Position numbers and translations under genes: made by a program. A stretch of 64,000 bases of DNA from Candidatus Cloacimonadota bacterium (lineage in GTDB: Bacteria > Muiribacteriota > UBA6191), in contig JAGSHD010000001.1 of assembly GCA_023954715.1 (NCBI GenBank), positions 492,468 through 556,467 of the forward strand, given 5' to 3'. This document shows positions 4,777 through 46,041 of the stretch, one piece after another. Below the pieces are notes generated by a model. That model was not told where the DNA came from and ran no database searches. It saw nothing but the letters and a program-made list of their open reading frames with translations. Each line of letters opens with the position of its first letter. Positions within the stretch are counted from its first letter, which is position 1.

Positions 4777-4819
4777 AAAAAAAGAGATGTTTGACATATT
4801 GTCAAACATCTCTTTTTTT
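4777..4819. terminator. Bidirectional rho-independent terminator
   Basis: AAAAAA-AGAGATGTTTGACA-TAT-TGTCAAACATCTCT-TTTTTT. This is a perfect 14 bp stem flanked by an A-run and a T-run, between the convergent cytochrome c (+) and zinc-ribbon (-) genes. Confidence 0.7.
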
Positions 4820-4841
4820 ATGATCTGGAAATTTTTACATT

Positions 4842-5828
4842 TTAAATATATAAAACATAAAAGAAGTATATAAATGAGGCAAAAGTTAATAGTGGAGTAA
4901 TTAACTCACTACTATCCCCTGTATGATATTTTTTAAGTTCGTCACTTGGAGATTTTTGTTTAGAACTTTTCAGCGAGCTCACCCACTGATTGGACTTTTG
5001 TTGACTTAAAACCGTATTTTCAGAAGCTTCTTTACGATTTATTGCAATCTTTGTAGGTTTAAAACTAGGGCTAGCCTTTTCAACAGCTTCTACTTGCTCT
5101 ACAGGTTTTTTAGTTTCAACAACGACTTCTTCTACTTTTTCTTCTATAACTTCTTTTGGCTGAATCGCTATTTTTTTAACCGCGCTTTTAGTGTGCTCAA
5201 TTGTTTTATCTTTAGGAAACAACTGATCTAAATATGCTAAATCTTTTTCAATTTGCTTTTGCCTTTTAGCTTTAATTTGACGTTCAAGCTCTTGAGCCTT
5301 CATTTTTTCAACTTTAATCATATCAAAAGTTGCTTGCTGAGGTTTTACACCTTTAAAAGTAGGTAGCTGCTTTTGTAATAAAAGCTTTTGATCTGGATTT
5401 AAAATGGATGCACGAGATTTTTGTGGTCTAAGCTTTTCTTTAGACTCTAACACCTTAGCTGGTATTTTCAACTCCGGAAGATTTAGCTTTGGAGCACTAG
5501 CCTTTAAAGTAGACGGAGATTTTGGTAATTTATCTTGAATCTCTTTTAACACCTGTTTTTTATCAACCACTCTGTTTTGCTCTACTTTCTGTAGATCAGG
5601 AGATAAAATGCTTCCTTGATTTTGAGAGGATAAAATTCTGCTCTCATCTTGCATAGGATGTGCAATAAATTGTGATGGATTAAATGTAGCCGGCCCCTTT
5701 TTTAAACCTTTGCTTTTTGGTAGAGCTAGTTTAGGGAACCCCGATTGTAATTTCACTCCACATTGGTAGCAAAATCTAGAAGTTTCTTCGTTTCCTGTTT
5801 TACATTTTTTACATATCTTCATAATCAA
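4842..5828 (-). CDS. Zinc-ribbon domain protein with K/P-rich low-complexity linker and C-terminal TM anchor
   Basis: N-terminus is CKKCKTGNEETSRFCYQCG (C4 zinc ribbon). There is a long Lys/Pro/Gln-rich middle region. The C-terminus is hydrophobic (LITPLLTFASFIYFFYVLYI). Confidence 0.6.
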   Translation of the reverse strand: MIMKICKKCKTGNEETSRFCYQCGVKLQSGFPKLALPKSKGLKKGPATFNPSQFIAHPMQDESRILSSQNQGSILSPDLQKVEQNRVVDKKQVLKEIQDKLPKSPSTLKASAPKLNLPELKIPAKVLESKEKLRPQKSRASILNPDQKLLLQKQLPTFKGVKPQQATFDMIKVEKMKAQELERQIKAKRQKQIEKDLAYLDQLFPKDKTIEHTKSAVKKIAIQPKEVIEEKVEEVVVETKKPVEQVEAVEKASPSFKPTKIAINRKEASENTVLSQQKSNQWVSSLKSSKQKSPSDELKKYHTGDSSELITPLLTFASFIYFFYVLYI

Positions 5829-6145
5829 TCCCTATCTATATCATCAATAAGATATTTACATAAAGTAGGCGGTAAAAGCCCACTTCACACAACTCTTGTA
5901 TCGGGAGTAAATGCACAAAATGTAATGGTTTTTTGATTATTTTGTCAATAAAAAGTGACAATTTATTCTATGAGTAGTATTAGATCGTAAATTGGGATCA
6001 GTTTTATTGTAAACAAGCTGAAACTTTCAAAGTATTTTATGCGTATCTATAGTCATCTAATACAAAGAAGTTTATTTGTATAGTAAAGCTGAACTCATTT
6101 CTTTATAATGTAGCTATCTACTCTCATTAACTGTTTAGGATCGCA

Positions 6146-7066
6146 ATGATAAAATTTATATTACTACTAATGTTCTCTGTATCATTTATTCAAGCCAATG
6201 AAGTTTATAATTCTATGCTACAAAAACTAGGCGTAAATTTCACAAATGGTCAAGATCCATACATTGATCAATACAAAAATACAGATGAGTTAGTTCGATT
6301 CCCAGAGTTAATCCAGCAATCTGGTGACTATTGGTTAATTGATAACTATAGAGAAATGCGTTGGAGTAAAGAAGTCCCAAAAAATGGTTTAAAATATAAA
6401 TTTTATAAAAACATTAGCCCTAAATGGACATCTGCTTTGATAGACGTTTCTAAACTCAAATCAGTTCGTTTATACATTTTAAACTTCAGAATTGGATTTA
6501 AAAGTGTATCCTTTCCTGTTGGTCACGTTCAACTAATGTATGAGTTTGAAGATGGTGGAGTTGTTACCCCAGCAGGATCAGTAAACAATCTAGTCCACTC
6601 CTTTGAAGCCTATTTAGACTATGCACAAGACTGGAACCCAATCACTGGGATTAAAGACGAGTACGAGTCTGTTATATTACTAGGGTCTTACAAGGATTCA
6701 ATTGCTAAAGCTCTAACTCGATTTGACGAAATCAAAACATATCAATTACAGCTTTCACCCTCACAAAAAAAAGAGCTTTTAGCTAATTCTCTGAAACTTG
6801 CTGTAGATAAAGAGCAACTTTCTAAAAAATACTACCATACTACTAGAAACTCTTGTGCAACAAATCAAATCACACTTCTAAATCAAATCCTTCCACAAAA
6901 CAAAAAGATCCAAGAGTGGAGTCATATATTTGGTAAAAGGTTATTTAGAACCTTCGGCACCATACTACCAAACAGAGTCTCCAAAAAGCTAAAACGCAAA
7001 TCGCTTATTGTAAAAGACAGTAAGCAATTCCACAAAGACTTAGAAGAGCTTTATAATTCGCTATAA
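6146..7066 (+). CDS. Secreted hypothetical protein (possible DUF4105/Lnb-N-like)
   Basis: Signal peptide MIKFILLLMFSVSFIQA. The YHTTRNSCATNQI motif is reminiscent of the DUF4105 family; this is from memory only and is unverified. Confidence 0.55.
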   Translation: MIKFILLLMFSVSFIQANEVYNSMLQKLGVNFTNGQDPYIDQYKNTDELVRFPELIQQSGDYWLIDNYREMRWSKEVPKNGLKYKFYKNISPKWTSALIDVSKLKSVRLYILNFRIGFKSVSFPVGHVQLMYEFEDGGVVTPAGSVNNLVHSFEAYLDYAQDWNPITGIKDEYESVILLGSYKDSIAKALTRFDEIKTYQLQLSPSQKKELLANSLKLAVDKEQLSKKYYHTTRNSCATNQITLLNQILPQNKKIQEWSHIFGKRLFRTFGTILPNRVSKKLKRKSLIVKDSKQFHKDLEELYNSL

Positions 7067-7677
7067 TGTTGCTTTTTGTATTTTATTAGTGTTGTTTAGT
7101 TAAATTTTTCTAACCCTACTAGATATTAGAATCGATACTAATTAGTTAAAAATGGATATAATATTGCTTTTATATCCATTATAGATAATACAATCAGATA
7201 CGTAATCACTCTTACTGTTCTAATATCACTAGGGTCATTGTCTTGACTTATAACTATTCCTCTATCTGACATTTTCATTCCCAATAAATATCTCACTATC
7301 TCTCGAATAAAAACAAAATTCAAAAATAATATAAAGATCAAATGCAAAAAGCTGATACTTAATCCTAAAGAACATAGTAGGAGCAGTAATATAACTACAG
7401 ATGGTACTGTTATCATTAAATATTGTTGAATCATGGGGACTTTTTGCCTTTACAATGGTATATGTAGTCACACCTACCCTAGTAGCTCAATTTATTACAA
7501 AAATACTTGTAAATCTGCTGTATCTAATGCGGAGTATACATCGTATTCTCCGGCTACCATTCAAAATCTTCAACGTCGGAAAAGGAATCACAAATTAATA
7601 ATCGGTCCTCTGATCTGTCATGCATCAATTTAAAAGCAATAATCCAACCTTTTCTTGGCTTAACAAATTGGGATTGA

Positions 7678-8073
7678 CTACAATCCTTCAATATATTCAA
7701 GAAAATCATCCTGTAAATCTCCACTAAGAACTTGTTCTGAACCATTTTTATGTAATAACTCCAACTCACCTTCAAAACCTTCCAATGAAACACCGTTATC
7801 TAAGATGATAAAAAGTGAAGAAAGAGTATCTACGGACGTTTGCTTAATTATAGAAAATAGTATTAGTTTATCATCTTCCGATAAGCTTCTAAAAAAAGGT
7901 ATCGCTTGTTTGTAATATGGGTCTTTAATTACATCAACTTTTGTATTTTCAAAAAGATTTTTATGTAACTCTAAATTTTCTTCAACTATATTCTTATAGA
8001 TACTTTTTGTAAAATAGTTTGTACTCATGGTATTGGCTAAATCCTTACTTATTTTATTCATCTGGACTAACAT
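7678..8073 (-). CDS. Hypothetical protein (131 aa)
   Basis: 131 aa ORF immediately downstream of, and co-oriented with, the pilin-like cluster. No recognisable motif. Confidence 0.45.
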   Translation of the reverse strand: MLVQMNKISKDLANTMSTNYFTKSIYKNIVEENLELHKNLFENTKVDVIKDPYYKQAIPFFRSLSEDDKLILFSIIKQTSVDTLSSLFIILDNGVSLEGFEGELELLHKNGSEQVLSGDLQDDFLEYIEGL

Positions 8074-8158
8074 TATATTTTTGATATTTTCTACTGTTTT
8101 TTAAATACTTTAAACAGTTGTACACATAAAAAGTTAAAAATATCCTTATGGGCGGTAT

Positions 8159-10165
8159 CTAAATACTAGCCTGCAAAAAGTCCACTAATCGGATATCTTG
8201 TCCGGTTGACTTGTCTTTGAGAAACATAAACTCATCACGATTATCTGTCCCTCTAGCTAATTGAGATGACTCGGAATCTCCCCAAGTTGATTTGGTAAAT
8301 TTTTCTAAAAAATCGGCATTTGTACGTGGAAGCTTGTCTGGTGATATATGAGACATTTTAAGGTATAATTCTTCTTTCCAGGTATTTTGGGGAATATCTA
8401 CCTTTCTCCATTTTCTGGTAGCACCTCCCTTATATGGATCCATAACATGAGCATTGAAATAATAACTAAATCGATTAGACTTATGAATTTTATCCACAGC
8501 AGCTCCGACTTTTCGAATATAACTAATATCAGGCATGGAGTTTTTAAACTCATCTTTCATTTCTTGTAAGGTTAGACCTTCCCCTGTACTAGTATAGTTT
8601 TCTAATTTGCGTTGATTATTCAGATTTCTAATATGCTGTAAAGCCCTTTGTGTGAAAATCTTTACATAGGTTTTTGATGAGTCATTTTCAAATTCACTAT
8701 TATCCCAATTGATATCATTAGCAACATCTTCACCGATTAAATCAGAGATAAATTTTACAGGAGGCTCGTCACCATTACTTAAAAAACGGTCTAACTCCTC
8801 AGCGGTAGTATCATCTTGATTTTCATCACCGTCTACCCCGTTACCATCTTGTTGGTAAGGTAGTGTAACTGGGTAAGAACCTTCAGCAGAGTCAACATTT
8901 GGATCTACCTCAGGATCAGCAGCCGAACCTTGATTGGTCCCGTCCGCACTATCATCTGGTTTTGGATTTTCGTTGTCTTCATTGGTAGGGATAGTCTGAT
9001 CTTTGTTTAAGATTTTTACAACACTACTTAGTTGCACATCATCTTCACCAAAGGCGACTCTGACATTTGCTTTGTTTAAAATATCAACTAATTTCTCTAA
9101 ACTATCTACATTATTGCTGTGAACATAGTCTAATAATTTATGAGTAAAATTCATAGCATTTAAATGACCGGTTTTAGCTACATCAAAAGGTAAATTACTT
9201 GGGTCATTAATACTCATTTTAGTATCATTAGCTAGACCTCCCATTGATTGAAGCATCTCCAAAACATCCGCTTTTTTAAGGTCCTCTTGACTGATCACTT
9301 TTGTATTGAGTTGATCATTTGTACTAAGGTCTAAACCATGCAATAACGAAGCAAAGTCATGTGCTGTAGAATGATCTCCTAATGACTCCGCTCCTTGAAT
9401 CGCTTTGCTTATTTTAGAATTAGCTTTTAAGTCTATTGCTAGTCTTTTTCTTCGTAGACGTTTTCTAATCTTTTGATTAATAAAACTTAACTCTGCCATT
9501 GCAATTAACAAGTCTTTTTGAGTCTCAAAGTTAATTTCTGAAACTTTTTTAGACGCTAAAAACTGTACTAAATCATCAATCTTTGCTGGTAAATTTACGA
9601 AATCTTTAGAAAAAGTAGGATTATTAACAAACTCTAGTAATCGTCTCTTATTAATACTAGATTTATTTGTTATAAACAGTTTTGCTTTAGCATTATTTAC
9701 TGAGGGTGGAGGCGGATCATAACTCAAGTTAGCTTTTACCATAGTTATATTTTGGTTTCCCATGTGATCTTGATAGATACCTTTTGTTAACAAAAACACA
9801 TGTTGAAACTGCCCATTTACCTTGACCTCGGAGGCGAACACAGAGTAAAACCCTTTACCGCCTTCTTCAGTGTAACCATAGTCAACTTTACTAGTATAAT
9901 TCGGACCTGTGTACCACCGAGCCTCATAGTTTGTTAGAGATTGAAGTCGACTTGAATAAGTCTGAAACCCAGCCTGTGCAATATAATAAGATCGTAAATC
10001 ATGCTCAAACATCAAATCTAGTTTACGTTGAGCCCGAATCGATTGATTATATATAGCCCCAAATACTGCCGCCATAAACAATATGACTATAACAATAGGT
10101 ATAACAAAACCACGATTATTTTTATATAGGCTACTCATGAATAGCCACACTATCAAACAATTCAA
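8159..10165 (-). CDS. Large pilus/T2SS-associated protein with pilin-like N-terminal TM segment and acidic (Asp/Glu/Asn-rich) region
   Basis: N-terminus …NNRGFVIPIVIVILFMAAVFGAIYNQS resembles a prepilin hydrophobic helix. Residues ~215-290 are highly acidic (DPEVDPNVDSAEG…DGDENQDD), which is a possible Ca-binding region. It is the last gene of the pseudopilin operon. Confidence 0.6.
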   Translation of the reverse strand: MNCLIVWLFMSSLYKNNRGFVIPIVIVILFMAAVFGAIYNQSIRAQRKLDLMFEHDLRSYYIAQAGFQTYSSRLQSLTNYEARWYTGPNYTSKVDYGYTEEGGKGFYSVFASEVKVNGQFQHVFLLTKGIYQDHMGNQNITMVKANLSYDPPPPSVNNAKAKLFITNKSSINKRRLLEFVNNPTFSKDFVNLPAKIDDLVQFLASKKVSEINFETQKDLLIAMAELSFINQKIRKRLRRKRLAIDLKANSKISKAIQGAESLGDHSTAHDFASLLHGLDLSTNDQLNTKVISQEDLKKADVLEMLQSMGGLANDTKMSINDPSNLPFDVAKTGHLNAMNFTHKLLDYVHSNNVDSLEKLVDILNKANVRVAFGEDDVQLSSVVKILNKDQTIPTNEDNENPKPDDSADGTNQGSAADPEVDPNVDSAEGSYPVTLPYQQDGNGVDGDENQDDTTAEELDRFLSNGDEPPVKFISDLIGEDVANDINWDNSEFENDSSKTYVKIFTQRALQHIRNLNNQRKLENYTSTGEGLTLQEMKDEFKNSMPDISYIRKVGAAVDKIHKSNRFSYYFNAHVMDPYKGGATRKWRKVDIPQNTWKEELYLKMSHISPDKLPRTNADFLEKFTKSTWGDSESSQLARGTDNRDEFMFLKDKSTGQDIRLVDFLQASI

Positions 10166-10637
10166 AGAAGTTTTCTTGCTTAGATTTTACAAGTTTTTTA
10201 TATTTCAAATAAACATCGATGCCCTTATTTGCATTGTTCACTATAATAAAGGTATCGAGTTGAACTTTAGGATTATTTTGCCTTACTAATGATACTTCTT
10301 TTTTATCTGAACTACTTAAATTTTTAGATACAAAAGTATTAGCACTATTTAGATAAAACTGAAAAATTTGACCATCTTTTTTTTGTATGGCACAGTAGTT
10401 TCCTTTTTGCTTATCTTTAATAGGATAGAGAATTTTTTGAGCTCCCTTAAACTCTTGCGTTAAAATCTTTAGTATTCGCTTTCCTTGAGAGAAAGCTACA
10501 ATCTCTTCAATTGATTGCTTACTCATTTTAGCGGGAGAGGTCCGAAGATTAGCCACAAGTAAAAATATGATGCCCATGACACCAATACTCACAGCAATTT
10601 CAACCATCGTAAAAGCTTTTTTGTTTAAAGTTTTCAT
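10131..10637 (-). CDS. Prepilin-type N-terminal cleavage/methylation domain protein (pseudopilin/minor pilin)
   Basis: MKTLNKKAF|TMVEIAVSIGVMGIIFLLVA has a short basic leader, Glu at +5 and a hydrophobic helix. It overlaps both neighbouring genes. Confidence 0.75.
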   Translation of the reverse strand: MKTLNKKAFTMVEIAVSIGVMGIIFLLVANLRTSPAKMSKQSIEEIVAFSQGKRILKILTQEFKGAQKILYPIKDKQKGNYCAIQKKDGQIFQFYLNSANTFVSKNLSSSDKKEVSLVRQNNPKVQLDTFIIVNNANKGIDVYLKYKKLVKSKQENFFELFDSVAIHE

Positions 10638-11335
10638 TTAATTACCGCAATATTACCAACAACGGTCTGTAAAACTAAGGATTTAACCTTAGATTGTTGT
10701 AAGGGATTATGCCATTGAACTTCTACTCTGGCATTTTTAGTATTATTAGAGTCTTTGACATTAAGCAATTCAATATTTAGTCTAAAATGCTTTAGCTCCC
10801 CTTTTAAATTAGGAAAATTATCGTCTATCCCCTTAGTCGAGCTTTCAAACAATTCAAAGTACGGACTTAAACCATAAGTTGAGTCTGGAGAAAAACCCAA
10901 AAACTTTTTATGTGTAGGAATATCATCAAGAGCACTAATGGATGAATCTGCTACAACCTTTTCTAAAACTCTATGAGCTACAAAGTGGGCCAAAGTATAT
11001 TTTTTACTTAAGTCTTGGTATTTTGCATTACCAGAAAACAACCCCCACAACGGAATTAATCCTCCTACCAAAATAACCAAGGCCACCATAATTTCAATTA
11101 ATGATAGGCCTTTTTGCCTAGAAGAATTTACTCTATAGAAACCTTTTAACTTAGACCCAAATACAAATGGTTTTACAGGTGCTTTCTGAATAAATAAAAG
11201 CCCATGTTGATGGGCTTTGTATTTTTTATGAACCTCATCCAACTCAAAACCTAGTTTTGACAAAAATTTATGGTTTTGCTTATAACGGAAAAACCAATTA
11301 TAGATGAGTATATAAACTTTAGCGACTATATTCAT
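10634..11335 (-). CDS. Pilin-like protein with unusually long N-terminal leader
   Basis: Internal …RQKG|LSLIEIMVALVILVGG… is a canonical prepilin cleavage/methylation motif, but it sits ~75 residues from the nearest ATG (MNIVAK…, 11335). No ATG/GTG is closer; only in-frame TTG codons at ~11242/11263 remain as alternatives. The track start at 11386 lies inside the upstream gene. Confidence 0.55.
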   Translation of the reverse strand: MNIVAKVYILIYNWFFRYKQNHKFLSKLGFELDEVHKKYKAHQHGLLFIQKAPVKPFVFGSKLKGFYRVNSSRQKGLSLIEIMVALVILVGGLIPLWGLFSGNAKYQDLSKKYTLAHFVAHRVLEKVVADSSISALDDIPTHKKFLGFSPDSTYGLSPYFELFESSTKGIDDNFPNLKGELKHFRLNIELLNVKDSNNTKNARVEVQWHNPLQQSKVKSLVLQTVVGNIAVIK

Positions 11336-12044
11336 GAACTCTTGAAGATGTATGTGCAACAGAACTTTTCCATTGTAGCTTACCATCTTTTGAGGACTCT
11401 GGAAATTTATAATCCAATATATTAGCTATTTTTTTAACTTGTAATGGAGTATCTGTTACTTCTTCTTGAATAGTTACCTCAGCACCTAAAACAATGTTAT
11501 CTGAAGTATTGGTCATTTTTAATAATGTAGGAGTCTTTAAAGATTGCTTTAAATTTTGAATCTCAACCCCATGATCTGACTCCATTAAAGATACTACTGT
11601 ATCTTCTTCGCTAACTGCTACTTTAAACTTAGTTCCTAAAACACCGGCCACCGCCACTGGAGTTTGTACTGCAAAGTTAGAACCCTTTTTTTCAATGAAA
11701 CAATCTGCAACACCCTTTAGAACATTTGCAAAAACTTTAAACTTTTTACCATCTTGAGGCTGCTGCAAAATAACTGTAGTCTCAGGCTCTAAAAACATAT
11801 CTCCATGCTCATGTACATAAAGATGAAGATAAGCATCTTTCGATACAACAATTTTATCTAATGAAAATAACGACCTTTTATTAATATCTGCAGGTAAGAG
11901 CTTTTGTTTGTTTTCAGAGGATGATGGATAATAAAATATCTCTCCAGACAAATTTTTAATGGTAGCTAAAACCGGACTTTTACTTGTTGGATTGTCACAA
12001 CCAGTAAACAATAAAATAAAGGTTAATAAGATAGTCCATTTCAC
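11319..12044 (-). CDS. FecR-domain lipoprotein
   Basis: The GTG start at 12044-12042 is preceded by AGGAG at 7 nt spacing. Lipobox LLFTGC. The central FKVFANVL…FAVQTPVAVAGVLGTKFKV pattern resembles the FecR domain (PF04773) GT+F.V motif. The track ATG start at 12119 has no RBS. Confidence 0.6.
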   Translation of the reverse strand: MKWTILLTFILLFTGCDNPTSKSPVLATIKNLSGEIFYYPSSSENKQKLLPADINKRSLFSLDKIVVSKDAYLHLYVHEHGDMFLEPETTVILQQPQDGKKFKVFANVLKGVADCFIEKKGSNFAVQTPVAVAGVLGTKFKVAVSEEDTVVSLMESDHGVEIQNLKQSLKTPTLLKMTNTSDNIVLGAEVTIQEEVTDTPLQVKKIANILDYKFPESSKDGKLQWKSSVAHTSSRVHEYSR

Positions 12045-32339: not shown

Positions 32340-34271
32340 ATGAATATGAACAAAATGACCCATATATTGATGATCTTTTTACTTACCAGCATAAGTTTTA
32401 GTCAGTTTGACTTACCTGCTGGTAGTTCTAGTGTACGTTTTCCAGTTGCACAAAGTACTTCTATAAGTAGTTTTTTCGCAGGTGAACTAGCAAAAATACA
32501 AGATTTGTGGCTACTTGATCCTTCTAACAAAACATGGAAGTACTATTCACCAAATACTCAATCTCAGCACTACACAGATTTCACTAGTTTCTCATCAATT
32601 GAGCCCAATCAATCATACATCATAAAATTAACTTCAGCCCTTAGCTTAAATACACCTTTTACTTTTTCAAGTGTAGATCCAGCAAATATTAAAACAGGTC
32701 TGCAATTAATAAACCTTGAAGACAGCCTAACTAACTTAACAAGTATCACAAGTAGCAATATTAATACTAGAGTGCACTCCATATATAGTCTCTGGAATAG
32801 TAAATGGTATAGACATTTTCATCAGCCTAGTACGGCTATGCTAAAAATACAAAGTTCAAGCTCTATACAAGCTCTTACTACTCTAACTAAACAAGCCGCC
32901 TATTTTTTAAATTTTGCCCCAAACATGACTAAGCTATCCATCGATCGAGTGGTTAACTTTTCAAGTATCCAATCAAATAATAAAGTGATTGTTGGCTCTT
33001 CTATTAATAACAGTGGAATCCCTACCGGTAGTGTTAGCTATTTAGGGCTAAATACAAGCACTTCCAACGGATACTGGTATGCAGATATCTATTACCCTAC
33101 AAATACTAAAAATATCTATTTAGATTTTATTCAAAATCATACAATCAGTGATAAAGTTCATAATTATAGTGCTATCAACTTAAATCAAACTAAGAAAAAT
33201 CATATTAATCTCTCTCCTGCCAACTCTTTGATTAGCTTGTTTCAAAGTAAAAACAAGGGTATATCAACTAGTGAAGTTGCTTCTTTTATACTCTCTCCAC
33301 TTGTTTTAAACAATAATGATCTATTAAATCAAAAGCACTATGATCCATTGAAAATTGATATCAATAGCAATAGTTTTACAGGTGCTGCTTTTACTCAAAG
33401 TGAAACTACAGTCGCTGGATTAGCTCTACAATCAATGAATGAAATTCTAAGTAACACTGTAAACTCTAATGATATAGAAATACTTAAACAAGTTAAAACC
33501 AGTTTTCAAAACTTATCTACAGTTAATGCTAATATCGCAGCCTTTAGCAATCTAATTTTTCATAAGCTTAGCTCATTGAATTCTAACGTATCCTTACAAA
33601 GTAAATTTAACTCTTTAAATGCTCTAGACTCTCAAAACTTAAACTTAAGTTTTTCAAATCAAACCATTAAAACTGACAAATCGTGGCTTAGTAGTCATCG
33701 CTTTTATGTGGGCAACATAGCTAGTAAAATCTCTAAAATTGAAAATCAAACAGCATTTTTAACACCTGTAGATCCATTAAAAAACTATCAGTTCACGGCG
33801 TACCCAAATAGTATCAAGTTTTCAATTTCACCATTTCAAGATCAGCTAACTACTAGTACCAAACTAGAAGTACGCCTTCAGTCGGTAAGCTCTGCTCAGC
33901 ATTTTATTTCTGTAACAGCAGATCATCTTACTATTGAACGAAACGCAGAAGGTCAAATTTTTACTGGTATTAAAAAAGATGTACCATTCACTGTTGAAAT
34001 TAAAACTTCAATCTCTGCTAAAATTGATAGCTTGAATGAAACATTTGATATTAACGACTATTTAATTGGTGACTCAACTTTTATCGAAGTGCCAATTAAA
34101 AACTATATAGATAAAGGTAAAAGCTCTACAATAACTACTAACGCCATCAATAGCTTTGAAGGTCAAAATAACAATTTAACTATCACTCTTAGTGACTTGT
34201 ATTTTAGTCTTCATAATATTAACTCCTTGAAGTTCAATAAAATAAAAATTGAAAATCTCAGAATAAACTAA
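32340..34271 (+). CDS. Secreted Ser/Thr/Asn-rich surface protein (643 aa)
   Basis: Signal peptide MNMNKMTHILMIFLLTSISFSQ. Low-complexity S/T/N-rich composition throughout. No recognisable catalytic motif. Confidence 0.6.
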   Translation: MNMNKMTHILMIFLLTSISFSQFDLPAGSSSVRFPVAQSTSISSFFAGELAKIQDLWLLDPSNKTWKYYSPNTQSQHYTDFTSFSSIEPNQSYIIKLTSALSLNTPFTFSSVDPANIKTGLQLINLEDSLTNLTSITSSNINTRVHSIYSLWNSKWYRHFHQPSTAMLKIQSSSSIQALTTLTKQAAYFLNFAPNMTKLSIDRVVNFSSIQSNNKVIVGSSINNSGIPTGSVSYLGLNTSTSNGYWYADIYYPTNTKNIYLDFIQNHTISDKVHNYSAINLNQTKKNHINLSPANSLISLFQSKNKGISTSEVASFILSPLVLNNNDLLNQKHYDPLKIDINSNSFTGAAFTQSETTVAGLALQSMNEILSNTVNSNDIEILKQVKTSFQNLSTVNANIAAFSNLIFHKLSSLNSNVSLQSKFNSLNALDSQNLNLSFSNQTIKTDKSWLSSHRFYVGNIASKISKIENQTAFLTPVDPLKNYQFTAYPNSIKFSISPFQDQLTTSTKLEVRLQSVSSAQHFISVTADHLTIERNAEGQIFTGIKKDVPFTVEIKTSISAKIDSLNETFDINDYLIGDSTFIEVPIKNYIDKGKSSTITTNAINSFEGQNNNLTITLSDLYFSLHNINSLKFNKIKIENLRIN

Positions 34272-35115: not shown

Positions 35116-35652
35116 TTATCTAAAACAAAACTTACTTTTTAAAAAACTCATCAACTGTTTAGTATCCATATCTTCTTCTACTTGAAAGTTGATGTAAAAT
35201 GGATGGTTCTCTTTTAAACCAACCATTAAATACATATCTCCCGCGATCAATTTTTTAGCCTTTCTCACTCCCACCTTGATAAAGTTTATTTTAACTCTTT
35301 CACTGAAGGCTAGCTCATTTACTTTGATGTTAGATACATCTTGACCACTTAAATTAAACTCGGTCCAATCAATAGGAGCATCGGGATAAAACGCTCTCCA
35401 ATAATCTCTTAACAAATCCTCTGAACTAGGAACAATGGAATGAAAGTACTCTTTAGTGGCAATTGAAAAATTAATCCAATTTTTATTTTTCTTCCATTGA
35501 TAAATGACTAAATCGCCCTCTTCTGAATTTTGTGTTTGCTTAAAAGAAGTATCTATTTTTACACCCACGTAAGTCGAGGTCCACGGCTTTTGACATAAGG
35601 TGATAACTGCCAAAATTATGTATAAAACAAATAGTATTATACTCTTGTTCAT
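35116..35652 (-). CDS. Hypothetical secreted/membrane-anchored protein
   Basis: Start set at the ATG (MNKSIIL…), which overlaps the hemB stop as ATGA. N-terminal hydrophobic segment IILFVLYIILAVITLC. Confidence 0.5.
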   Translation of the reverse strand: MNKSIILFVLYIILAVITLCQKPWTSTYVGVKIDTSFKQTQNSEEGDLVIYQWKKNKNWINFSIATKEYFHSIVPSSEDLLRDYWRAFYPDAPIDWTEFNLSGQDVSNIKVNELAFSERVKINFIKVGVRKAKKLIAGDMYLMVGLKENHPFYINFQVEEDMDTKQLMSFLKSKFCFR

Positions 35653-36623
35653 TTTGTAATGCCCCAAGAAACAAAGTCTCTAGCCCAATAACTCAGTATT
35701 AAATCCGCTCCCGCTCTTTTCATAGAAAGTAATGACTCTAAAGCTACGGCTTGTTCATCAATCCATCCTCTTTCAGCCCCTGCTTTTATAATAGAGTACT
35801 CTCCCGATACATTATAACAAGCCAGAGGCAAGTCATATTTATTTTTTATATCTCGTATAATATCTAAATAGGATAATGCTGGTTTTACCATTAATATATC
35901 AACACCCTCTAAAACATCTAAGTCAACTTCTCGAATTGCTTCAAGACGATTTGCAGGATTCATTTGATATCCTTTTCTATCTCCACTTTCAGGAGCTGAA
36001 TCTGCCGCATCTCTAAAAGGACCATAAAAAGCTGAACTATACTTAGCAGAATATCCCATAATTGGTATAGATGAATATCCATTATTATCTAGGGCTGTAC
36101 GTAAGCTATGAACAATACCATCCATCATTCCAGAAGGAGCGATCATATCTACTCCAGCTTGAGCATAAGACAAGGCTAATCGCTGGGACATTTCAAGAGT
36201 AGGATCATTTAAGACATGAGATTTCTCTAAGATCCCACAATGTCCATGGCTCGTATACTCACAAAAACACAAATCAGCTAAAACATAGATTTCATTTCCG
36301 AATCGTTTTTTTAGTGCGGAGATAGCAAGTTGAACAATACCTTTAGAGTCATCTGCTCCACTCGCAGTCGGATCTTTACTTTTTGGGATCCCAAACAAGA
36401 TAAATTTTTTAACTCCACCTAACATCAAACGCTCCACATCTTTCAACATACTTTCGATATCTAAACGATAGTGAGAAGGCATTGATTTAATCTCATGAGT
36501 CCCAACTTCTTCATGAATAAATAAAGGCAAGATAAGATCGTTAATACTCAAACTATTTTCTGCGATCGATTCTCGTAAAATTTTATTTTCTCTTAATCTT
36601 CTTAGTCTTACTTCTGGAAACAT
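35649..36623 (-). CDS. hemB: Porphobilinogen synthase (delta-aminolevulinate dehydratase)
   Basis: N-terminal MFPEVRLRRLR…, active-site Lys regions and overall 324 aa length match HemB. Confidence 0.9.
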   Translation of the reverse strand: MFPEVRLRRLRENKILRESIAENSLSINDLILPLFIHEEVGTHEIKSMPSHYRLDIESMLKDVERLMLGGVKKFILFGIPKSKDPTASGADDSKGIVQLAISALKKRFGNEIYVLADLCFCEYTSHGHCGILEKSHVLNDPTLEMSQRLALSYAQAGVDMIAPSGMMDGIVHSLRTALDNNGYSSIPIMGYSAKYSSAFYGPFRDAADSAPESGDRKGYQMNPANRLEAIREVDLDVLEGVDILMVKPALSYLDIIRDIKNKYDLPLACYNVSGEYSIIKAGAERGWIDEQAVALESLLSMKRAGADLILSYWARDFVSWGITK

Positions 36624-39248: not shown

Positions 39249-39542
39249 ATTTTACTCTATCTTAAAGTCTGCGTCATTCTATCAGTTCTCAATATATTTT
39301 CAAAGATTAAAATGATTGTTTACATAACATTATTAGTAATTGTATTATGTCGAAATTAATTACTGAGCCACTTAATTTAATATGAAGTCTGAGTCCTAGA
39401 TTAGTGCCATTCCCTTTGCTAACAGTAACTTTACTTTTATCACTGGAATTACACCCTTCATTATGAGATTCTTAGACAATCAATTAACATAGTTGAAGAC
39501 TTACTTTTTTGAGTCGAGTTCTAATATATCTGAGGTAATTTT

Positions 39543-41294
39543 ATGCAATTATTGGGCCGTGATGAAGAAATACTCTACTTCAATAGAGAGTTTGCCAATC
39601 CAAATGGGTTTGCAAACCTCGTGTTTGGACTAAGTGGAGTAGGAAAATCCTATTTGGTAAAACATTGGTCCAGAGTGCAATGTACAAAAAACTGCTTAGT
39701 AAGTCATCATAAATGTGCAGATCCGACTCAAGTACCGCAATATTTTATAAAAACTCTTTCTAGCAATCTCATATCCTCATTAAGTGTTGAAGAACACAAC
39801 TTGTTTCTATTTTCACTAAGAGAAAGCATCGGACAAAACTTTCCTATAAATGAGTGGTGCCAAGCATCAAATCAAGATTACCTCAAAGATGGATATATAT
39901 TTATTCAAATTTTAAGGGCTTTAGTGGTTTCTTTGAATAAAAGTATATTGTTAATTATCGATCAGGCTGAAAAATTAAGTGAAGAAAGCCTATATCTTTT
40001 AAAACAAATCGTAGAATGGAAACCCACTTCTATAAGTATAGTGACTTGTGTGACCAGTAAATTCTTAGGAAAAGAAGGTTTTGAAAAAGAGTTTGCTGAA
40101 AAATTTTACTTTAAAGGGCAAACTACAATTGAGTTAAAGGCTATTTCTAGCATTTTTCAAGATAGCTACTTTGAGTTATACGGAATTAGTCAAGAAGTGG
40201 AAGGTTTACATTTTCAAGAATGTGCCCTATATCAAAAACGACTGTGGCTCATGGAGCAACTAACAATCAACCAAGAAATGCAAGAAGCGTTTCTACATCT
40301 AGCAAAGTTCCCCGATGGATTGCAAGAGTCTGAAAACTTTTACTTTGAGTACTTTTATACCCTTTTAGATTCTCTACCTATCTTAGATGAGATACTTCAT
40401 CTTGAAGGTACATTGATTCGTTTTGATGATGATGTGTATGCACAAGATATTCTTGAAAAGTTTACAGATTCAAAGTTTTGTAGTATTCAAAACACTAAAC
40501 ATAAAGACCTTATCAGATATCATTTATATTTTGATCTTCAATCTAATCCATGTCCAAGTGAAGAAGTCTTTTTAAAACTATTGAAAACATATATGAAATG
40601 TTTAGATTTTAGTAATTTAAACCAACTCTCATCTGCATTTGACCAAGAGAGCGTATACTCAGAACATACCCAAAAATATAGTAAGGCCTGTTCTTTGGTC
40701 TCTAATTTATACTTTAACTATTCAGACCAACTCTTTGAAGAGTATCTTGACTATAGCCAAACTTTAGACAAATCAATCAAAAAAGACATGAGTCAGAATA
40801 TCTATCATTTGCTAAAAGTACACAATAAAGAAGTACTTTTTTATAAACATTTTATTTCAACAGACACACTAGATTCAGATAGCAATTTTCTAAAACAAGT
40901 CATCTGGGCTTATGCACTCAATATGAAGCAAACAGACTTCGAAGTCTTTGAATGCTTTGCTGATTTGATCCATGAAAATTTTTATGCAGGCTCTGTAAAA
41001 GTGTGTAATTACTTTCTTTCAGAAAACAAAATACACTCCAAAGAAGAGTTACCTCAAGAGTATCAAACAGAAGCCTTTTATATCTTAGGCCTAGCGTCTA
41101 TGGAAAACTCCAATTTTGTAGAAGCTAAGCAGTATTTTATAAAAGCTGTTCATCAATCTTTATTAGATCAAGACTTTGATCACCTTTCATCAATTTTGAG
41201 TTCTGTATCGGAAGTATGTACAGAACTAAACGACTTTGAAAGCCAACTAGAAAACTACCGCGAAGCTGTAATTGTTGATCAATTCAGTCTATAA
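39543..41294 (+). CDS. AAA_16/STAND-like P-loop NTPase with C-terminal helical (TPR-like) region
   Basis: GRDEEILYFNREF…LVFGLSGVGKSYLV (Walker A preceded by the GRxxE motif typical of AAA_16). LLIIDQAEKL (Walker B). A ~350 aa alpha-helical C-terminal region. No DNA-binding or effector domain recognised. Confidence 0.6.
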   Translation: MQLLGRDEEILYFNREFANPNGFANLVFGLSGVGKSYLVKHWSRVQCTKNCLVSHHKCADPTQVPQYFIKTLSSNLISSLSVEEHNLFLFSLRESIGQNFPINEWCQASNQDYLKDGYIFIQILRALVVSLNKSILLIIDQAEKLSEESLYLLKQIVEWKPTSISIVTCVTSKFLGKEGFEKEFAEKFYFKGQTTIELKAISSIFQDSYFELYGISQEVEGLHFQECALYQKRLWLMEQLTINQEMQEAFLHLAKFPDGLQESENFYFEYFYTLLDSLPILDEILHLEGTLIRFDDDVYAQDILEKFTDSKFCSIQNTKHKDLIRYHLYFDLQSNPCPSEEVFLKLLKTYMKCLDFSNLNQLSSAFDQESVYSEHTQKYSKACSLVSNLYFNYSDQLFEEYLDYSQTLDKSIKKDMSQNIYHLLKVHNKEVLFYKHFISTDTLDSDSNFLKQVIWAYALNMKQTDFEVFECFADLIHENFYAGSVKVCNYFLSENKIHSKEELPQEYQTEAFYILGLASMENSNFVEAKQYFIKAVHQSLLDQDFDHLSSILSSVSEVCTELNDFESQLENYREAVIVDQFSL

Positions 41295-41310
41295 CCACTT
41301 AGGACTCCTT

Positions 41311-43878
41311 ATGAATACATTTCAAAACCTAAAGTCATATCACCTAGAAAACGGAACGAAAGTATATCTTCAACCTGAAACACACCATAATTTGGTGACT
41401 TTTCAGGTTTGGTATGGTGTTGGCGCACGATTTGAGTCCCCCAAAAATTATGGTGTTTCACACTTTATTGAACATCTGTTTTTTAAAGGCACTAAAAAGT
41501 ACGGCCCTGGAATCATCGATAAAAAGTTAAACGAAATCGGAGCATTTAATAATGCCGCTACTTCAAAAGACTATACCTTCTACTATACTTTTGGTGTGGC
41601 TGATAAGTTTGAAGAAATGTTTGAAATTCAATCAGAAATGTTAATTAACCCAAGTTTTGATCCAGATGAAATCGACAAAGAACGTAAAGTAGTTATAGCT
41701 GAAATTAATAGAGCCAATGATACTCCAGAAAGAATCTTCTATTACCACCTAATGGATCAATTGTATCAATCTCATCCCTATTCTAAACCAGTTCTTGGTT
41801 TTGAAAATATTATAGAAAATATATCTAGAGAAGACATCGTTGAATATCACCAGAGCCATTATCACCCTAACAACACAAATATTGTACTTGTAGGTAACTT
41901 CGATGAAGCCAAAGCTAGATCAATGATTGAAAGTACCTTTGGTAAAATTGCTAATGAGGGCTATCCTGTTGCTAAAACTAAAATGGCTGTGATGCCTGAG
42001 CCTTCTAAAAAAACATACTACTCAAAGATCAAAAGAAACCTTTCTAATTTCGCTTTTATGGGACCAGATGGTAATCAAATTAAAGATATTGTAGCCCTAG
42101 ATTTACTATCTACTATTTTAACGGATGGTAAAAGTTCTAGATGGACAAAGCACTTCAAAGAAGACCTAAATCTTGTAGAGGCTCTGTCTTTTTCCCATTA
42201 TACTTCCCATGATAAAGCCCCTATCTTGATATACGCTAGAGTTAAGGACAATCAATGGCTAGAATATCACAAAGAAATGAAAATCTGCTTAGATAAATTA
42301 AGAAAGTTTTATGTCAGCCGTGAAGAGCTCCACCTAGCAAAACAATACGAGTTAAATCAAAGTCAATATTATTGGCAAAAGATGAGAAATAGAGCCCAAT
42401 CTATTGGCTTTTATGCTTCCATGGATCAGGTAGATGTAATCAAAAATCACAAAACCCTTATTTCAAGTATCACGCAAGAGGATATTATACGAGTAATTGA
42501 AAAATATCTCAGTAGTGAGCCAATTTTAACGCAGATGTTACCTGAAGAGTCTCAAGTAGAGCCACAAACATCTCAAGAAGAAATTCACCCTCTTAAATAT
42601 ACAACAAAAGAAATCTCTACTAATATTACTCACATTCAGTTCGACTCCGGTTTACAGCTTGTATTCAACCAAGATAAATCATCTGAAATTTGCCTTGCTA
42701 ACTTAACTCTAAATAACTTATCTGAGTTCACTAATCGCTTTCCACCTGGGACCTGCTATTTAATGCAAAAGCTTCTATCAAGAGGTACAAGCAGCGCTTC
42801 TCAAGAAAAAATAGCTCAAAGTATGGATCTTTTAGGTGCAAAATATTCAACAATTGCCCCTGCTTCACAAAGTAGAAAAGACACTTATCGAAATCAGCTA
42901 TTAGCTCCACAAAATTCATTCTGGGAAGCATTCAGCACCTTTTGTAGTTTTTTCACTGACGCTAGTTTTCCTGAATCGGAGATACAAAAGTCTAAAGAAA
43001 ATATCCTACAAGAAATTAAAGCAATGCCAGATGCCTTATCAAGTTATTGCATGTATCACCTGTTACAAAACTTTTTTGAAGGCCATCCTTATGAAACACC
43101 TTTCATCGGAACCTCTGAATCAGTATCCCAACTATCTAGAAAAGATATAAACGATTTATATAGTGTCATGTACAATCCACAAAATATGACACTTTTTATT
43201 GGTGGTAACTTCACTTTAGAAGAAGTCATAGAGAAAGCACATCAATTTTTAAACAAAAAGTTGGGAGGACTAAATTACTCTTTAGGTGAGCTAAAAGTAC
43301 CAAATACTTTTGTTTCTAAAAGAGAAAATACTATTGATAGTGTTAGTAGTACCAAAGAGCAATCATATCTCATGCCAGCCTGGCTTGTACCTGGTATACA
43401 GTCTGAGCAATATCCAACAGCATTATTAATCAATGAGATTTTAGGCGGTGGAATGTCTAGTCGATTCTTTCATAATATGAGAGACGAAAAGAGCTATGGT
43501 TACGAAATCGGTTCAAGCTACATTAGTTATAAAAATTATGGAGTTATTTTTGCATATCTAGGTACAGACCCTCATCGGGTGAATGATGCAAGTGAAGACT
43601 TTAAAAAAGAAGTTAGATCTATACAACAGGAGGGAGTGAGTATTGCTGAATTAGGCAAAGCTAAACAACTTCTTCTCTCCAAAAAAGAGCTCTCTCAAGA
43701 AACTATGAGTGATAGACTCTCTTCTTTTGCTAATCTTTTCACCAAAGGAATGTCGGTAACTCAAATACAAAATTACAAACAAAACCTCTTAAATGTAACG
43801 CCAAAAATGATTCAGTCTTTTGCCAAAGAACACCTAGTTAATCCATTTGAACAACGAGTAGAACCAAAAAAACAGTAA
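41311..43878 (+). CDS. Two-domain M16 (pitrilysin) family zinc peptidase
   Basis: The inverted zinc motif HFIEHLFFKGT (HxxEH) is in the N-terminal half, and the second half is also M16-like. Start set at the ATG at 41311 after AGGA (MNTFQNLKSY…), 16 nt after the upstream stop. No signal peptide. Confidence 0.85.
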   Translation: MNTFQNLKSYHLENGTKVYLQPETHHNLVTFQVWYGVGARFESPKNYGVSHFIEHLFFKGTKKYGPGIIDKKLNEIGAFNNAATSKDYTFYYTFGVADKFEEMFEIQSEMLINPSFDPDEIDKERKVVIAEINRANDTPERIFYYHLMDQLYQSHPYSKPVLGFENIIENISREDIVEYHQSHYHPNNTNIVLVGNFDEAKARSMIESTFGKIANEGYPVAKTKMAVMPEPSKKTYYSKIKRNLSNFAFMGPDGNQIKDIVALDLLSTILTDGKSSRWTKHFKEDLNLVEALSFSHYTSHDKAPILIYARVKDNQWLEYHKEMKICLDKLRKFYVSREELHLAKQYELNQSQYYWQKMRNRAQSIGFYASMDQVDVIKNHKTLISSITQEDIIRVIEKYLSSEPILTQMLPEESQVEPQTSQEEIHPLKYTTKEISTNITHIQFDSGLQLVFNQDKSSEICLANLTLNNLSEFTNRFPPGTCYLMQKLLSRGTSSASQEKIAQSMDLLGAKYSTIAPASQSRKDTYRNQLLAPQNSFWEAFSTFCSFFTDASFPESEIQKSKENILQEIKAMPDALSSYCMYHLLQNFFEGHPYETPFIGTSESVSQLSRKDINDLYSVMYNPQNMTLFIGGNFTLEEVIEKAHQFLNKKLGGLNYSLGELKVPNTFVSKRENTIDSVSSTKEQSYLMPAWLVPGIQSEQYPTALLINEILGGGMSSRFFHNMRDEKSYGYEIGSSYISYKNYGVIFAYLGTDPHRVNDASEDFKKEVRSIQQEGVSIAELGKAKQLLLSKKELSQETMSDRLSSFANLFTKGMSVTQIQNYKQNLLNVTPKMIQSFAKEHLVNPFEQRVEPKKQ

Positions 43879-44526: not shown

Positions 44527-44557
44527 TAACCACTCTGATTTGAGTGGTTTTTTTTAT
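44527..44557 (+). terminator. Rho-independent terminator
   Basis: AACCACTC-tgattt-GAGTGGTT followed by TTTTTTT. Confidence 0.65.

Positions 44558-45157: not shown

Positions 45158-45159
<2 letters not shown>
44683..45159 (+). CDS. Hypothetical protein, possibly DsrE/YchN-fold
   Basis: The YFIFMDSAIYLA…KILLNHSSV pattern resembles the DsrE/TusD family; this is tentative. Its stop codon overlaps the first bases of the tRNA. Confidence 0.45.
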
Positions 45160-45231
<72 letters not shown>

Positions 45232-45367
45232 CTATATGGCTTCTCTTGATTGTGCTATTATTTCAATATTACAATCAAGCGAAGCCTTTTTTACGTACCA
45301 ATAAAGTTTAACTAGCTAGATACCTTATCATATAAACCACTTCAAAAATATTTATGGACTTATAGCA

Positions 45368-45417: not shown

Positions 45418-46041
45418 TCAGTGAGCAAAAGATTGATCTATTAACTTTTGAAGCTCTCTTAACTGTCTAGTTGTTAAAGGAACTTTCGCTGTCAATGTAT
45501 CAACATATCTCTCTAGCTCATGTAAATGTAAAACTGGATACTTTTCTTTTCCTAGTTGGAGCTCTGCATCATGATTTGAAAATACAACTACAGGAAGAGT
45601 ATCTACTTTTACCCCTTTGTCTAACATCATAGCTTCAAAAACACGACGTGTTCTATCGATTTGAACAATAGGGCTTTTAAAATCACGTGGATACGCTTTA
45701 CCACTTTCTGATAATTTGATCTGACACCAACCATCTTTTTTTGCTACAATTTTACCTCTGATGTTTTTTGTCTCAATCAAAATAATTCCCTGATGAGTTA
45801 ATAACAAATGATCAATCTCAAAAGTTTTTCTATCAAATCTTGAGGTTAACCCATGATACACTCCAAACACATCTTCTAGATTATCAAGATAGTCACTTAC
45901 TAACTTTTCTCCATAATCCCCAAATTGTTTGATTTTTCGTAATCGTCTCCACTCGACGATCTGTTCTGCATACGTTAAATATAATATATACAAAAACTGC
46001 AATAATATAATGAATACCAACAGTACACTTGTATTTGACAT
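45418..46041 (-). CDS. NERD (nuclease-related domain) protein with N-terminal TM segment
   Basis: …YGEKLVSDYL…FEIDHLLLTHQGIILIETKNIRGKI… matches the NERD core (G.xGE…EIDhlli…GifviEtKn.sG). N-terminal hydrophobic helix. Confidence 0.78.
   Translation of the reverse strand: MSNTSVLLVFIILLQFLYILYLTYAEQIVEWRRLRKIKQFGDYGEKLVSDYLDNLEDVFGVYHGLTSRFDRKTFEIDHLLLTHQGIILIETKNIRGKIVAKKDGWCQIKLSESGKAYPRDFKSPIVQIDRTRRVFEAMMLDKGVKVDTLPVVVFSNHDAELQLGKEKYPVLHLHELERYVDTLTAKVPLTTRQLRELQKLIDQSFAH

Follow-up and report, generated by a model that had tools for sequence, protein, structure and literature searches.

Among described proteins, the closest in architecture to the one considered here are PH0952 of Pyrococcus horikoshii (PDB entry 6mfv) and MalT of E. 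coli, in which a nucleotide-binding domain (NBD), a helical domain (HD) and a winged-helix domain (WHD) are followed by an arm and a TPR or SUPR sensor, and which carry GR, Walker A and Walker B motifs. The switch mechanism of both proteins has been described, and the crystallised form of the former, PH0952ΔN, is PH0952 minus its ArsR-like DNA-binding domain (PMC6468293). We have analysed a 64,000-nucleotide stretch of contig JAGSHD010000001.1 (assembly GCA_023954715.1, positions 492,468 to 556,467), hereafter the window, from a bacterium labelled Candidatus Cloacimonadota in NCBI. It contains a gene for a 583-residue STAND-type NTPase with the same predicted architecture, closely followed by a gene for a cytosolic M16 zinc peptidase. 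Since PH0952ΔN lacks the DNA-binding domain, the window protein would be in nature what PH0952ΔN is by construction. The two are 13% identical in a structural alignment, the window protein has no PDB sequence match at E ≤ 0.4, and the Walker B motif of its family differs from that of PH0952 and MalT in having glutamine at the second position in 12 of 13 members. By analogy with PH0952 and MalT, the window protein is probably an ADP/ATP switch whose oligomerisation is gated by an inducer.

Other STAND proteins share parts of this plan. The antiphage Avs proteins and other bacterial NLR-like STANDs likewise combine a STAND core with a repeat sensor, and the sensor region evolves fast in them as it does here. 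Avs proteins have fused effector domains, reside in variable defence islands, and owe a patchy distribution to horizontal transfer. The window protein, in contrast, has no effector domain and no match in PADLOC, and occupies a fixed core locus in one lineage. AfsR/SARP proteins, PknK-type kinases and the TOMM kinase/cyclase fusion TIGR03903 also consist of an AAA_16 NTPase and TPR-like repeats, but have fused outputs (kinase, cyclase, BTAD, LuxR), whereas the output of the window protein, if any, would be a separate polypeptide. An effector domain at the end of the protein is a general, though not universal, STAND trait that the window protein does not show.

The peptidase resembles the M16B enzymes of Sphingomonas sp. 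A1 (a heterodimer, 3amj), B. halodurans (BH2405, 3hdi) and E. coli (PqqL, 6ofs), with which it shares a clamshell made of an active, HxxEH-containing half and an inactive half. Like those of PqqL, its halves are fused in a single chain, here of 855 residues, which, however, has no signal peptide. We know of no ATPase partner for any of these three enzymes.

Judged from the sequences compared below, the STAND and M16 genes belong to a core operon that occurs solely in the candidate phylum UBP17 and is passed on vertically. The explanation that we prefer, with a probability of roughly 0.4, is that a lineage-specific, ligand-gated STAND switch is co-transcribed with, and possibly acts on, enzymes of peptide and aromatic amino-acid catabolism. 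This figure refers to the explanation as a whole, of which everything from ligand binding onward is entirely inferred. The STAND class and M16B peptidases are both known; no description of an effector-less STAND protein in an operon with an M16 peptidase, here found in UBP17 only, was encountered in the literature searched, which was limited to one library.

The STAND protein and the adjacent peptidase

The 583-residue protein only just clears the Pfam cut-off for AAA_16 (35.0 bits; gathering score, 32.6), and the models for AAA_22, NACHT, nSTAND6, ATPase_2 and TPR match it below threshold. Among NCBIfam models, only TIGR03903, the kinase/cyclase-AAA_16 fusion, matched, weakly and over the P-loop region; no curated model other than AAA_16 was matched. 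Conservation was measured over 13 family members at 24-67% identity. In addition to the motifs listed in Table 1, invariant or nearly invariant residues are found in EWKP (158-161), in an FFFKG motif (K191 invariant, F190 nearly so) and in a QKRLWL motif (W235 invariant, Q231 and K232 nearly so). The hhGRExE motif at the N-terminus is said to have been recognised as a STAND signature by Leipe et al. in 2004. The invariance of these motifs argues for a working nucleotide switch. What is atypical is Q141, which replaces the second acidic residue of Walker B (the one remaining member has glutamate) and which, by inference, would be compatible with slow hydrolysis.

An AlphaFold2 (AF2) model based on a 13-sequence alignment reached a predicted local distance difference test score (pLDDT) of 89.2 and a predicted template modelling score (pTM) of 0.90. 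A run with 5 sequences, since superseded, gave a pLDDT of 68.8 and left the P-loop region unmodelled. In the 13-sequence model, the NBD is an α/β domain with five strands, the WHD comprises a helix (268-283) and a hairpin (285-294), the arm is built of helical hairpins, and the C-terminal helical half is TPR-like by structure. The chain runs from the GR motif to the last TPR helix and no segment is left unassigned. In a Foldseek search of the PDB, the best match was PH0952ΔN (6mfv_A, STAND-TPR), which aligned over the full length (E 5e-8, 643 columns) and was followed by Cdc6/Orc1, SAMD9 and MalT (8bob_C); a PDB sequence search with the family profile returned nothing meaningful (best E 0.44). 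Identity to distant members is 32-34% in the NBD and HD, 16% in the arm and 21% in the TPR part, and rises to 50% in the final helix (YREAVIxxQF). Neither Pfam nor NCBIfam yielded an HTH family at E ≤ 1, and an effector domain is likewise missing, there being no other Pfam or NCBIfam match and the structure map accounting for residues 1-583. On the strength of the motifs and the model, we assign the protein to the STAND-type NTPases, with an NBD-HD-WHD-arm-TPR order and without a fused output domain. An earlier, sequence-only reading of the locus had recognised an AAA_16-type P-loop (GRDEE, GLSGVGKS, LLIIDQAE) followed by a long helical, TPR-like and sensor-like region, in a protein lacking any DNA-binding or effector domain, and this description held in every part. 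Membership in a known HTH-containing regulator family, which that reading had raised as a contrary outcome, was not found.

The nearest structural relatives of the protein, PH0952 and MalT, are transcription factors, and the STAND gene is the first in its operon and adjoins a conserved block with divergent promoter-like sites. These observations speak for an indirect transcriptional regulator, that is, a MalT- or AfsR-like STAND protein minus the HTH, which would act on the operon through a separate DNA-binding protein that it either sequesters or activates. However, no HTH or other DNA-binding domain is present in the 583 residues, and the conserved block includes no regulator gene. We consider such a role very unlikely.

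The open reading frame of the M16 peptidase extends over 868 residues if read from an upstream TTG at 41272, and over 855 residues if read from the ATG at 41311. The ATG is almost certainly the true start, because it lies 16 nt past the STAND stop codon, is preceded by AGGA, and yields the N-terminus that is common to all orthologues. The earlier description of an HxxEH peptidase of the M16 family, without a signal peptide and 16 nt downstream of the NTPase gene, was thereby upheld except for the length of 868 residues. Two matches each to Peptidase_M16 (PF00675) and Peptidase_M16_C (PF05193) were obtained (E 2e-42 and 9e-62), as they were in the orthologues. The zinc motif, HFIEH, occupies residues 51-55 (nt 41461-41475). 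Both HxxEH and the downstream glutamate motif EKERxVVxxEI (EKERKVVIAEI in the window) are conserved in all orthologues and outgroups, and by these motifs the peptidase is catalytically intact. Its nearest PDB sequence matches were the M16B peptidases 3amj_C (E 1.6e-43) and 3hdi (E 3e-41). None of the named M16 equivalogs of NCBIfam scored above its cut-off (YfmF, 149 vs 285; YfmH, 148 vs 250; pitrilysin, 67 vs 765).

No signal peptide was found in the window peptidase, and the M16 proteins from the same lineage (P0006-P0019; 47-88% identity) all lack one as well. The next homologues, outside the lineage, are ~30% identical and all have a signal peptide; at three such loci that were inspected (contexts thrS/DUF6613/rpoB and QueH/TPM), the M16 gene has no AAA_16 neighbour. 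Because its signal-peptide-less relatives are confined to the lineage, and the homologues beyond it are distant, exported and, at the three loci inspected, devoid of an AAA_16 neighbour, the partnered peptidase is, on sequence grounds, a lineage-specific cytosolic subfamily and not a ubiquitous housekeeping enzyme. As a separate observation, the exported, four-domain homologues of ~860 residues in other phyla (P0022-P0125) repeatedly have a DUF6613 gene in front of them (L012:5060-5857, L013:5375-5911), and the two may form a conserved pairing of their own.

M16B enzymes are leader- or peptide-processing proteases in the pyrroloquinoline quinone (PQQ) pathway and in other pathways for ribosomally synthesised and post-translationally modified peptides (RiPPs). 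In addition, the closest structural matches of the TPR part of the STAND protein include the peptide-binding TPRs of Rap phosphatases, PlcR, LGN and Pins, and the peptidase has a match to PqqF and a weak one to PqqF-like_C_4 (E 3.6e-5, below the gathering threshold). The pair could accordingly be imagined as a peptide-signal or RiPP-like module, in which the M16 peptidase makes or breaks a peptide ligand of the TPR sensor, and in which PhhA, the phenylalanine-4-hydroxylase encoded between the two genes in most relatives, may modify an aromatic residue. However, the PqqF match (TIGR02110) amounts to 40.7 bits against a cut-off of 320, the operon, its 295-nt upstream spacer included, showed no conserved small open reading frame, and no gene for a radical-SAM protein, cyclodehydratase, other maturase or transporter is present among the neighbours. 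A module of this kind is, in our view, distinctly unlikely.

Gene order, distribution and evolutionary rates

Across the lineage, the genes are arranged as ECH-hem-PfkB, then STAND-(PhhA)-M16-170aa-158aa-tRNA, then NERD-CysS, where ECH stands for enoyl-CoA hydratase and the 170- and 158-residue proteins are named by their lengths. At every in-lineage locus with enough sequence, the STAND gene is upstream of the M16 gene and on the same strand. The loci covered were the window, L001-3/L015, L008/9, L004/5, L007, L010/L016, L011, L018, L019, L020, L021 and the P0009 contig from JGI; L017 and L022 stop short of the M16 gene. Full-length STAND homologues at 24-67% identity occur in this arrangement in more than 10 independent assemblies. 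By this comparison of sequences, the pair is real and conserved, and not a chance pair of open reading frames. The sequence-only reading had allowed for an M16 gene that is ubiquitous and whose adjacency to the NTPase gene is not kept among relatives; instead, all related genomes that were examined retain the linkage, and the M16 subfamily is specific to the lineage.

In L004/5, L007, L010, L011 and L017-L022, a gene for phenylalanine-4-hydroxylase (PhhA, 280-289 residues, Biopterin_H E 1e-74) is interposed between the STAND and M16 genes (L004:11771-12622, L010:7111-7980, L011:7128-7970, L020:7147-7992, L021:~7772-8620), and its start and stop codons often overlap or abut those of its neighbours. 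The gene is absent only from the window clade and the P0009 contig. Since these two are not sisters in a neighbour-joining tree of the M16 proteins, STAND-PhhA-M16 is probably the ancestral order, and phhA appears to have been lost twice independently, once in the window clade and once in the P0009 contig. A search of the window for a remnant of phhA was negative. Its 16-nt STAND-M16 junction is probably derived, as the scar of an evolutionary deletion. The idea of a self-contained two-gene module, put forward from the window alone, had to be given up, as most relatives have PhhA between the two genes and the conserved unit also takes in two genes further downstream.

Within STAND-(PhhA)-M16, the intergenic gaps range from -4 to 30 nt at all loci, and 69-158 nt separate the M16 gene from that of the 170-residue protein. 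A terminator scan revealed no candidate site in the STAND-M16 junction. On the P0009 contig, arginine-biosynthesis (arg) genes take the place of PfkB and hem on the left, and STAND-M16-176aa-162aa-NERD-CysS is kept; the window, for its part, is rearranged relative to NORP72 immediately to the left of ECH. The breakpoints thus lie around the operon and not within it, which favours a real linkage.

A word-indexed search of 5.8 billion proteins returned five STAND clusters. An exhaustive profile search of 1.84 billion protein representatives returned 12 members of the family, some of them fragments, after which the score fell from 116 to 45 bits. STAND loci were found in five of 185,579 species genomes, and two more in JGI metagenomes; the 2.9 million viral contigs of IMG/VR yielded no relatives. 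All members of the family come from UBP17, which is labelled 'Ca. Cloacimonadota' in NCBI. NORP72, one of the genomes compared, belongs to this poorly known GTDB phylum, formerly part of Cloacimonetes, and a related, particle-associated metagenome-assembled genome from the abyss exists (PMC9426571). These records and the one paper replace an initial guess that the DNA came from Bdellovibrionota.

The genes of the block have diverged to very different extents. Between the window and L004, identity is 26% for STAND, 48% for M16, 55% for PfkB, 58% for CysS, 63% for ECH and 71% for the exported 170-residue protein, which is encoded by the most conserved gene of the block. The corrected distance of the STAND protein is 2-4 times that of its neighbours.

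A protein that changes so much faster than those around it, and whose arm and TPR part (16-21%) have diverged further than its NBD (32-34%), might be expected of an antiphage or conflict system of the Avs kind, with the STAND protein as the sensor of an invader and the M16 peptidase as the toxic effector that it activates; the position of a sensor-type STAND gene without an effector of its own, directly upstream of a protease gene, would suit this too. Chambered M16 peptidases, however, are known to cleave only short, unfolded peptides and would make poor suicide effectors. PADLOC contains no family that matches the STAND protein, its one match to the peptidase (E 0.04) is meaningless, and the neighbouring genes show only generic NERD similarity (E ~1e-5, confined to the NERD parts of MkoA and PglW). 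Moreover, no relatives were present in the viral contigs, and the locus is single-copy and inherited vertically in one phylum, in a fixed housekeeping context without island-like variability or patchiness; the contig of the window is 600 kb long. A defence origin, at which the sequence-only reading had hinted by its comparison with Avs, was consequently rejected on the basis of the PADLOC searches, the viral-contig scan and the synteny analysis, and we regard it as highly improbable.

The main rival to a functional link, the other three being minor, is that STAND and M16 are neighbours by descent only, with unrelated functions, and that the STAND protein signals to an unlinked partner. Several observations favour such a situation and weigh against the explanation that we prefer. 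The entire block of ~13 kb from ECH to CysS is syntenic throughout the lineage, so that the conserved adjacency of STAND and M16 is less informative than it would be in shuffled genomes. The evidence for a functional pair is gene order, all of it drawn from a single narrow, uncultured lineage, and the pairing did not recur outside UBP17 in the sample examined. In most genomes the pair is split by the gene of an unrelated enzyme, PhhA, whose two losses left both neighbours undisturbed, a pattern that fits operon mates as well as it fits partners. The operon also holds the exported 170-residue protein and the 158-residue protein, which have no evident functional link to the pair; no homologues of their genes were found beside out-of-lineage M16 genes. 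After removal of the shared phylogenetic signal, the residual rates of STAND and M16 covary more strongly than those of any other pair (r = 0.58), though in only 7 genomes and with STAND-PfkB at 0.55. Finally, M16 clamshell peptidases are not, to our knowledge, in need of ATPase partners.

On the other side stand the tight spacing, with gaps of 30 nt or less in all genomes, and a run of genes from the STAND start to position 44528 that is free of terminators. The pair has also survived both the exchange of the left flank on the P0009 contig and the rearrangement to the left of ECH in the window, and the STAND family and the signal-peptide-less M16 clade are confined to the same lineage. With both sets of observations in mind, we view adjacency by descent alone as only a little less probable than the explanation that we prefer.

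Possible function of the pair

According to our preferred explanation, that of a ligand-gated switch linked to catabolic enzymes, the fast-evolving TPR/arm sensor would bind a small ligand, plausibly an oligopeptide or a metabolite derived from an aromatic amino acid, the aromatic context being suggested by the ancestral presence of phhA in the operon. Binding of the ligand would relieve autoinhibition and allow the exchange of ADP for ATP, and oligomerisation would follow, as in MalT and PH0952. The oligomer, having no effector domain, would then signal through protein-protein contact with an operon partner. The prime candidate for this partner is the M16 peptidase, which may be an enzyme that the STAND protein regulates or scaffolds, or may make or destroy the ligand. 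Such a system would regulate the turnover of peptides and aromatic amino acids in the cytosol as part of normal physiology, and would not serve antiphage defence.

One specific form of this control would be an apoptosome-like platform, in which the ligand-gated STAND oligomer recruits or switches on the peptidase, or gates the access of substrates to it. We think this form unlikely, but, if correct, it would amount to an undescribed control, by nucleotide and ligand, of an ATP-independent clamshell metallopeptidase in the bacterial cytosol, with sensor and effector on separate polypeptides. If the STAND protein does control M16 in any way, the pair would be the first case of a STAND switch whose output, a pitrilysin-type clamshell peptidase, is a separate protein. 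Such control would also offer a handle on how effector-less STAND proteins, which are usually ignored in surveys, might signal, and would be among the few functional hypotheses for UBP17, a deep-sea phylum of which almost nothing is known. If, on the other hand, the two proteins are merely operon mates, what is left is an orphan, phylum-specific STAND family, useful for annotation (the NCBI label is currently 'ATP-binding protein') and otherwise ordinary.

Other features of the window

The coordinates of the two genes, their motifs and the accompanying features are given in Table 1. To the left, on the minus strand, are the genes of a PfkB-family kinase, hemC, hemD, hemB, a 183-residue protein of unknown function and ECH, in agreement with the kinase/hem operon noted there earlier. 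To the right, the genes of the 170- and 158-residue proteins are followed, on the minus strand, by those of a NERD-domain protein and CysS. In an alignment of the window, L001 and L008, ~60 nt of the spacer between PfkB and STAND are nearly invariant and the remainder cannot be aligned. The divergent promoter-like hexamers that this block overlaps (plus strand, 39319-39348, TTTACA-18-TATTAT; minus strand, 39303-39276) are consensus matches only, and their number does not exceed the shuffle expectation. The leader between the block and the STAND start is ~195 nt long in the window and shorter in L008.

Table 1. Positions in the window of the STAND and M16 genes, their motifs and associated features
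Feature	Position	Strand	Remarks
Effector-less STAND NTPase, 583 residues (predicted)	39543-41294	+	Open reading frame; starts MQLLGRDEE; TAA stop 41292-41294
STAND domain map			AF2 model: NBD 1-200, HD 203-254, WHD 255-310, arm ~320-440, TPR sensor 441-583
hhGRExE-type motif LLGRDEE, residues 3-9	39549-39569	+	N-terminal to P-loop; G5 and R6 invariant in 13 family members
Walker A, GLSGVGKS, residues 29-36	39627-39650	+	G29, G34 and K35 invariant; S/T36 conserved
Walker B region, LLIIDQAE, residues 136-143	39948-39971	+	D140 and E143 invariant
Last helix, L..D..Q...YREAVI..QF, residues 562-583	41226-41291	+	Best-conserved part of the sensor
STAND-M16 junction, 16 nt	41295-41310	+	Sequence; AGGA ribosome-binding site 41301-41304
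Cytosolic four-domain M16B zinc peptidase, fused active and inactive halves, 855 residues (predicted)	41311-43878	+	Pfam and PDB matches
Conserved block in the divergent PfkB/STAND intergenic region	39275-39335		Back-to-back promoter-like sites
Co-conserved exported protein, 170 residues	43998-44510	+	Signal peptide; weak DUF4136 match (Pfam E 2e-4, below gathering threshold)
Terminator-like hairpin and T-run	44528-44549	+	First such noncoding site 3' of the STAND start; after the 170-residue gene
Co-conserved protein, 158 residues	44683-45159	+	Weak DsrE-like match (E 0.14, not significant)
tRNA-Val(GAC), end of plus-strand block	45158-45232	+	Rfam 66 bits; ARAGORN

The region to the left of ECH differs between the window and NORP72. 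The left flank of ECH in NORP72 (L001:1-4729, encoding a FecR-like protein and proteins of 178, 168, 649 and 310 residues) is found ~22-30 kb away in the window, in inverted orientation (4800-12000, minus strand), and these close relatives differ by a rearrangement or an insertion. A Ser/Asn-rich secreted protein of 643 residues, encoded at 32340-34271 of the window, has no counterpart in the L001 flank. In the window (35649-36623), NORP72 and L021, hemB is located between the gene of the 183-residue protein and hemD; it is missing from that position at several other UBP17 loci (L004:6810-8038, L010, L011, L020).

An Rfam scan of the whole window detected only the tRNA-Val, whose gene begins 2 nt before the open reading frame of the 158-residue protein ends. 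In NORP72 (L001:15910-16700), the position of this tRNA is separated from the NERD gene by two inserted genes, one for a 125-residue protein and one for a PhdYeFM antitoxin, which points to a small variable site beside tRNA-Val. The NERD-domain protein itself has 207 residues and a hydrophobic N-terminus, and its gene (45418-46041, minus strand) adjoins cysS in all relatives.

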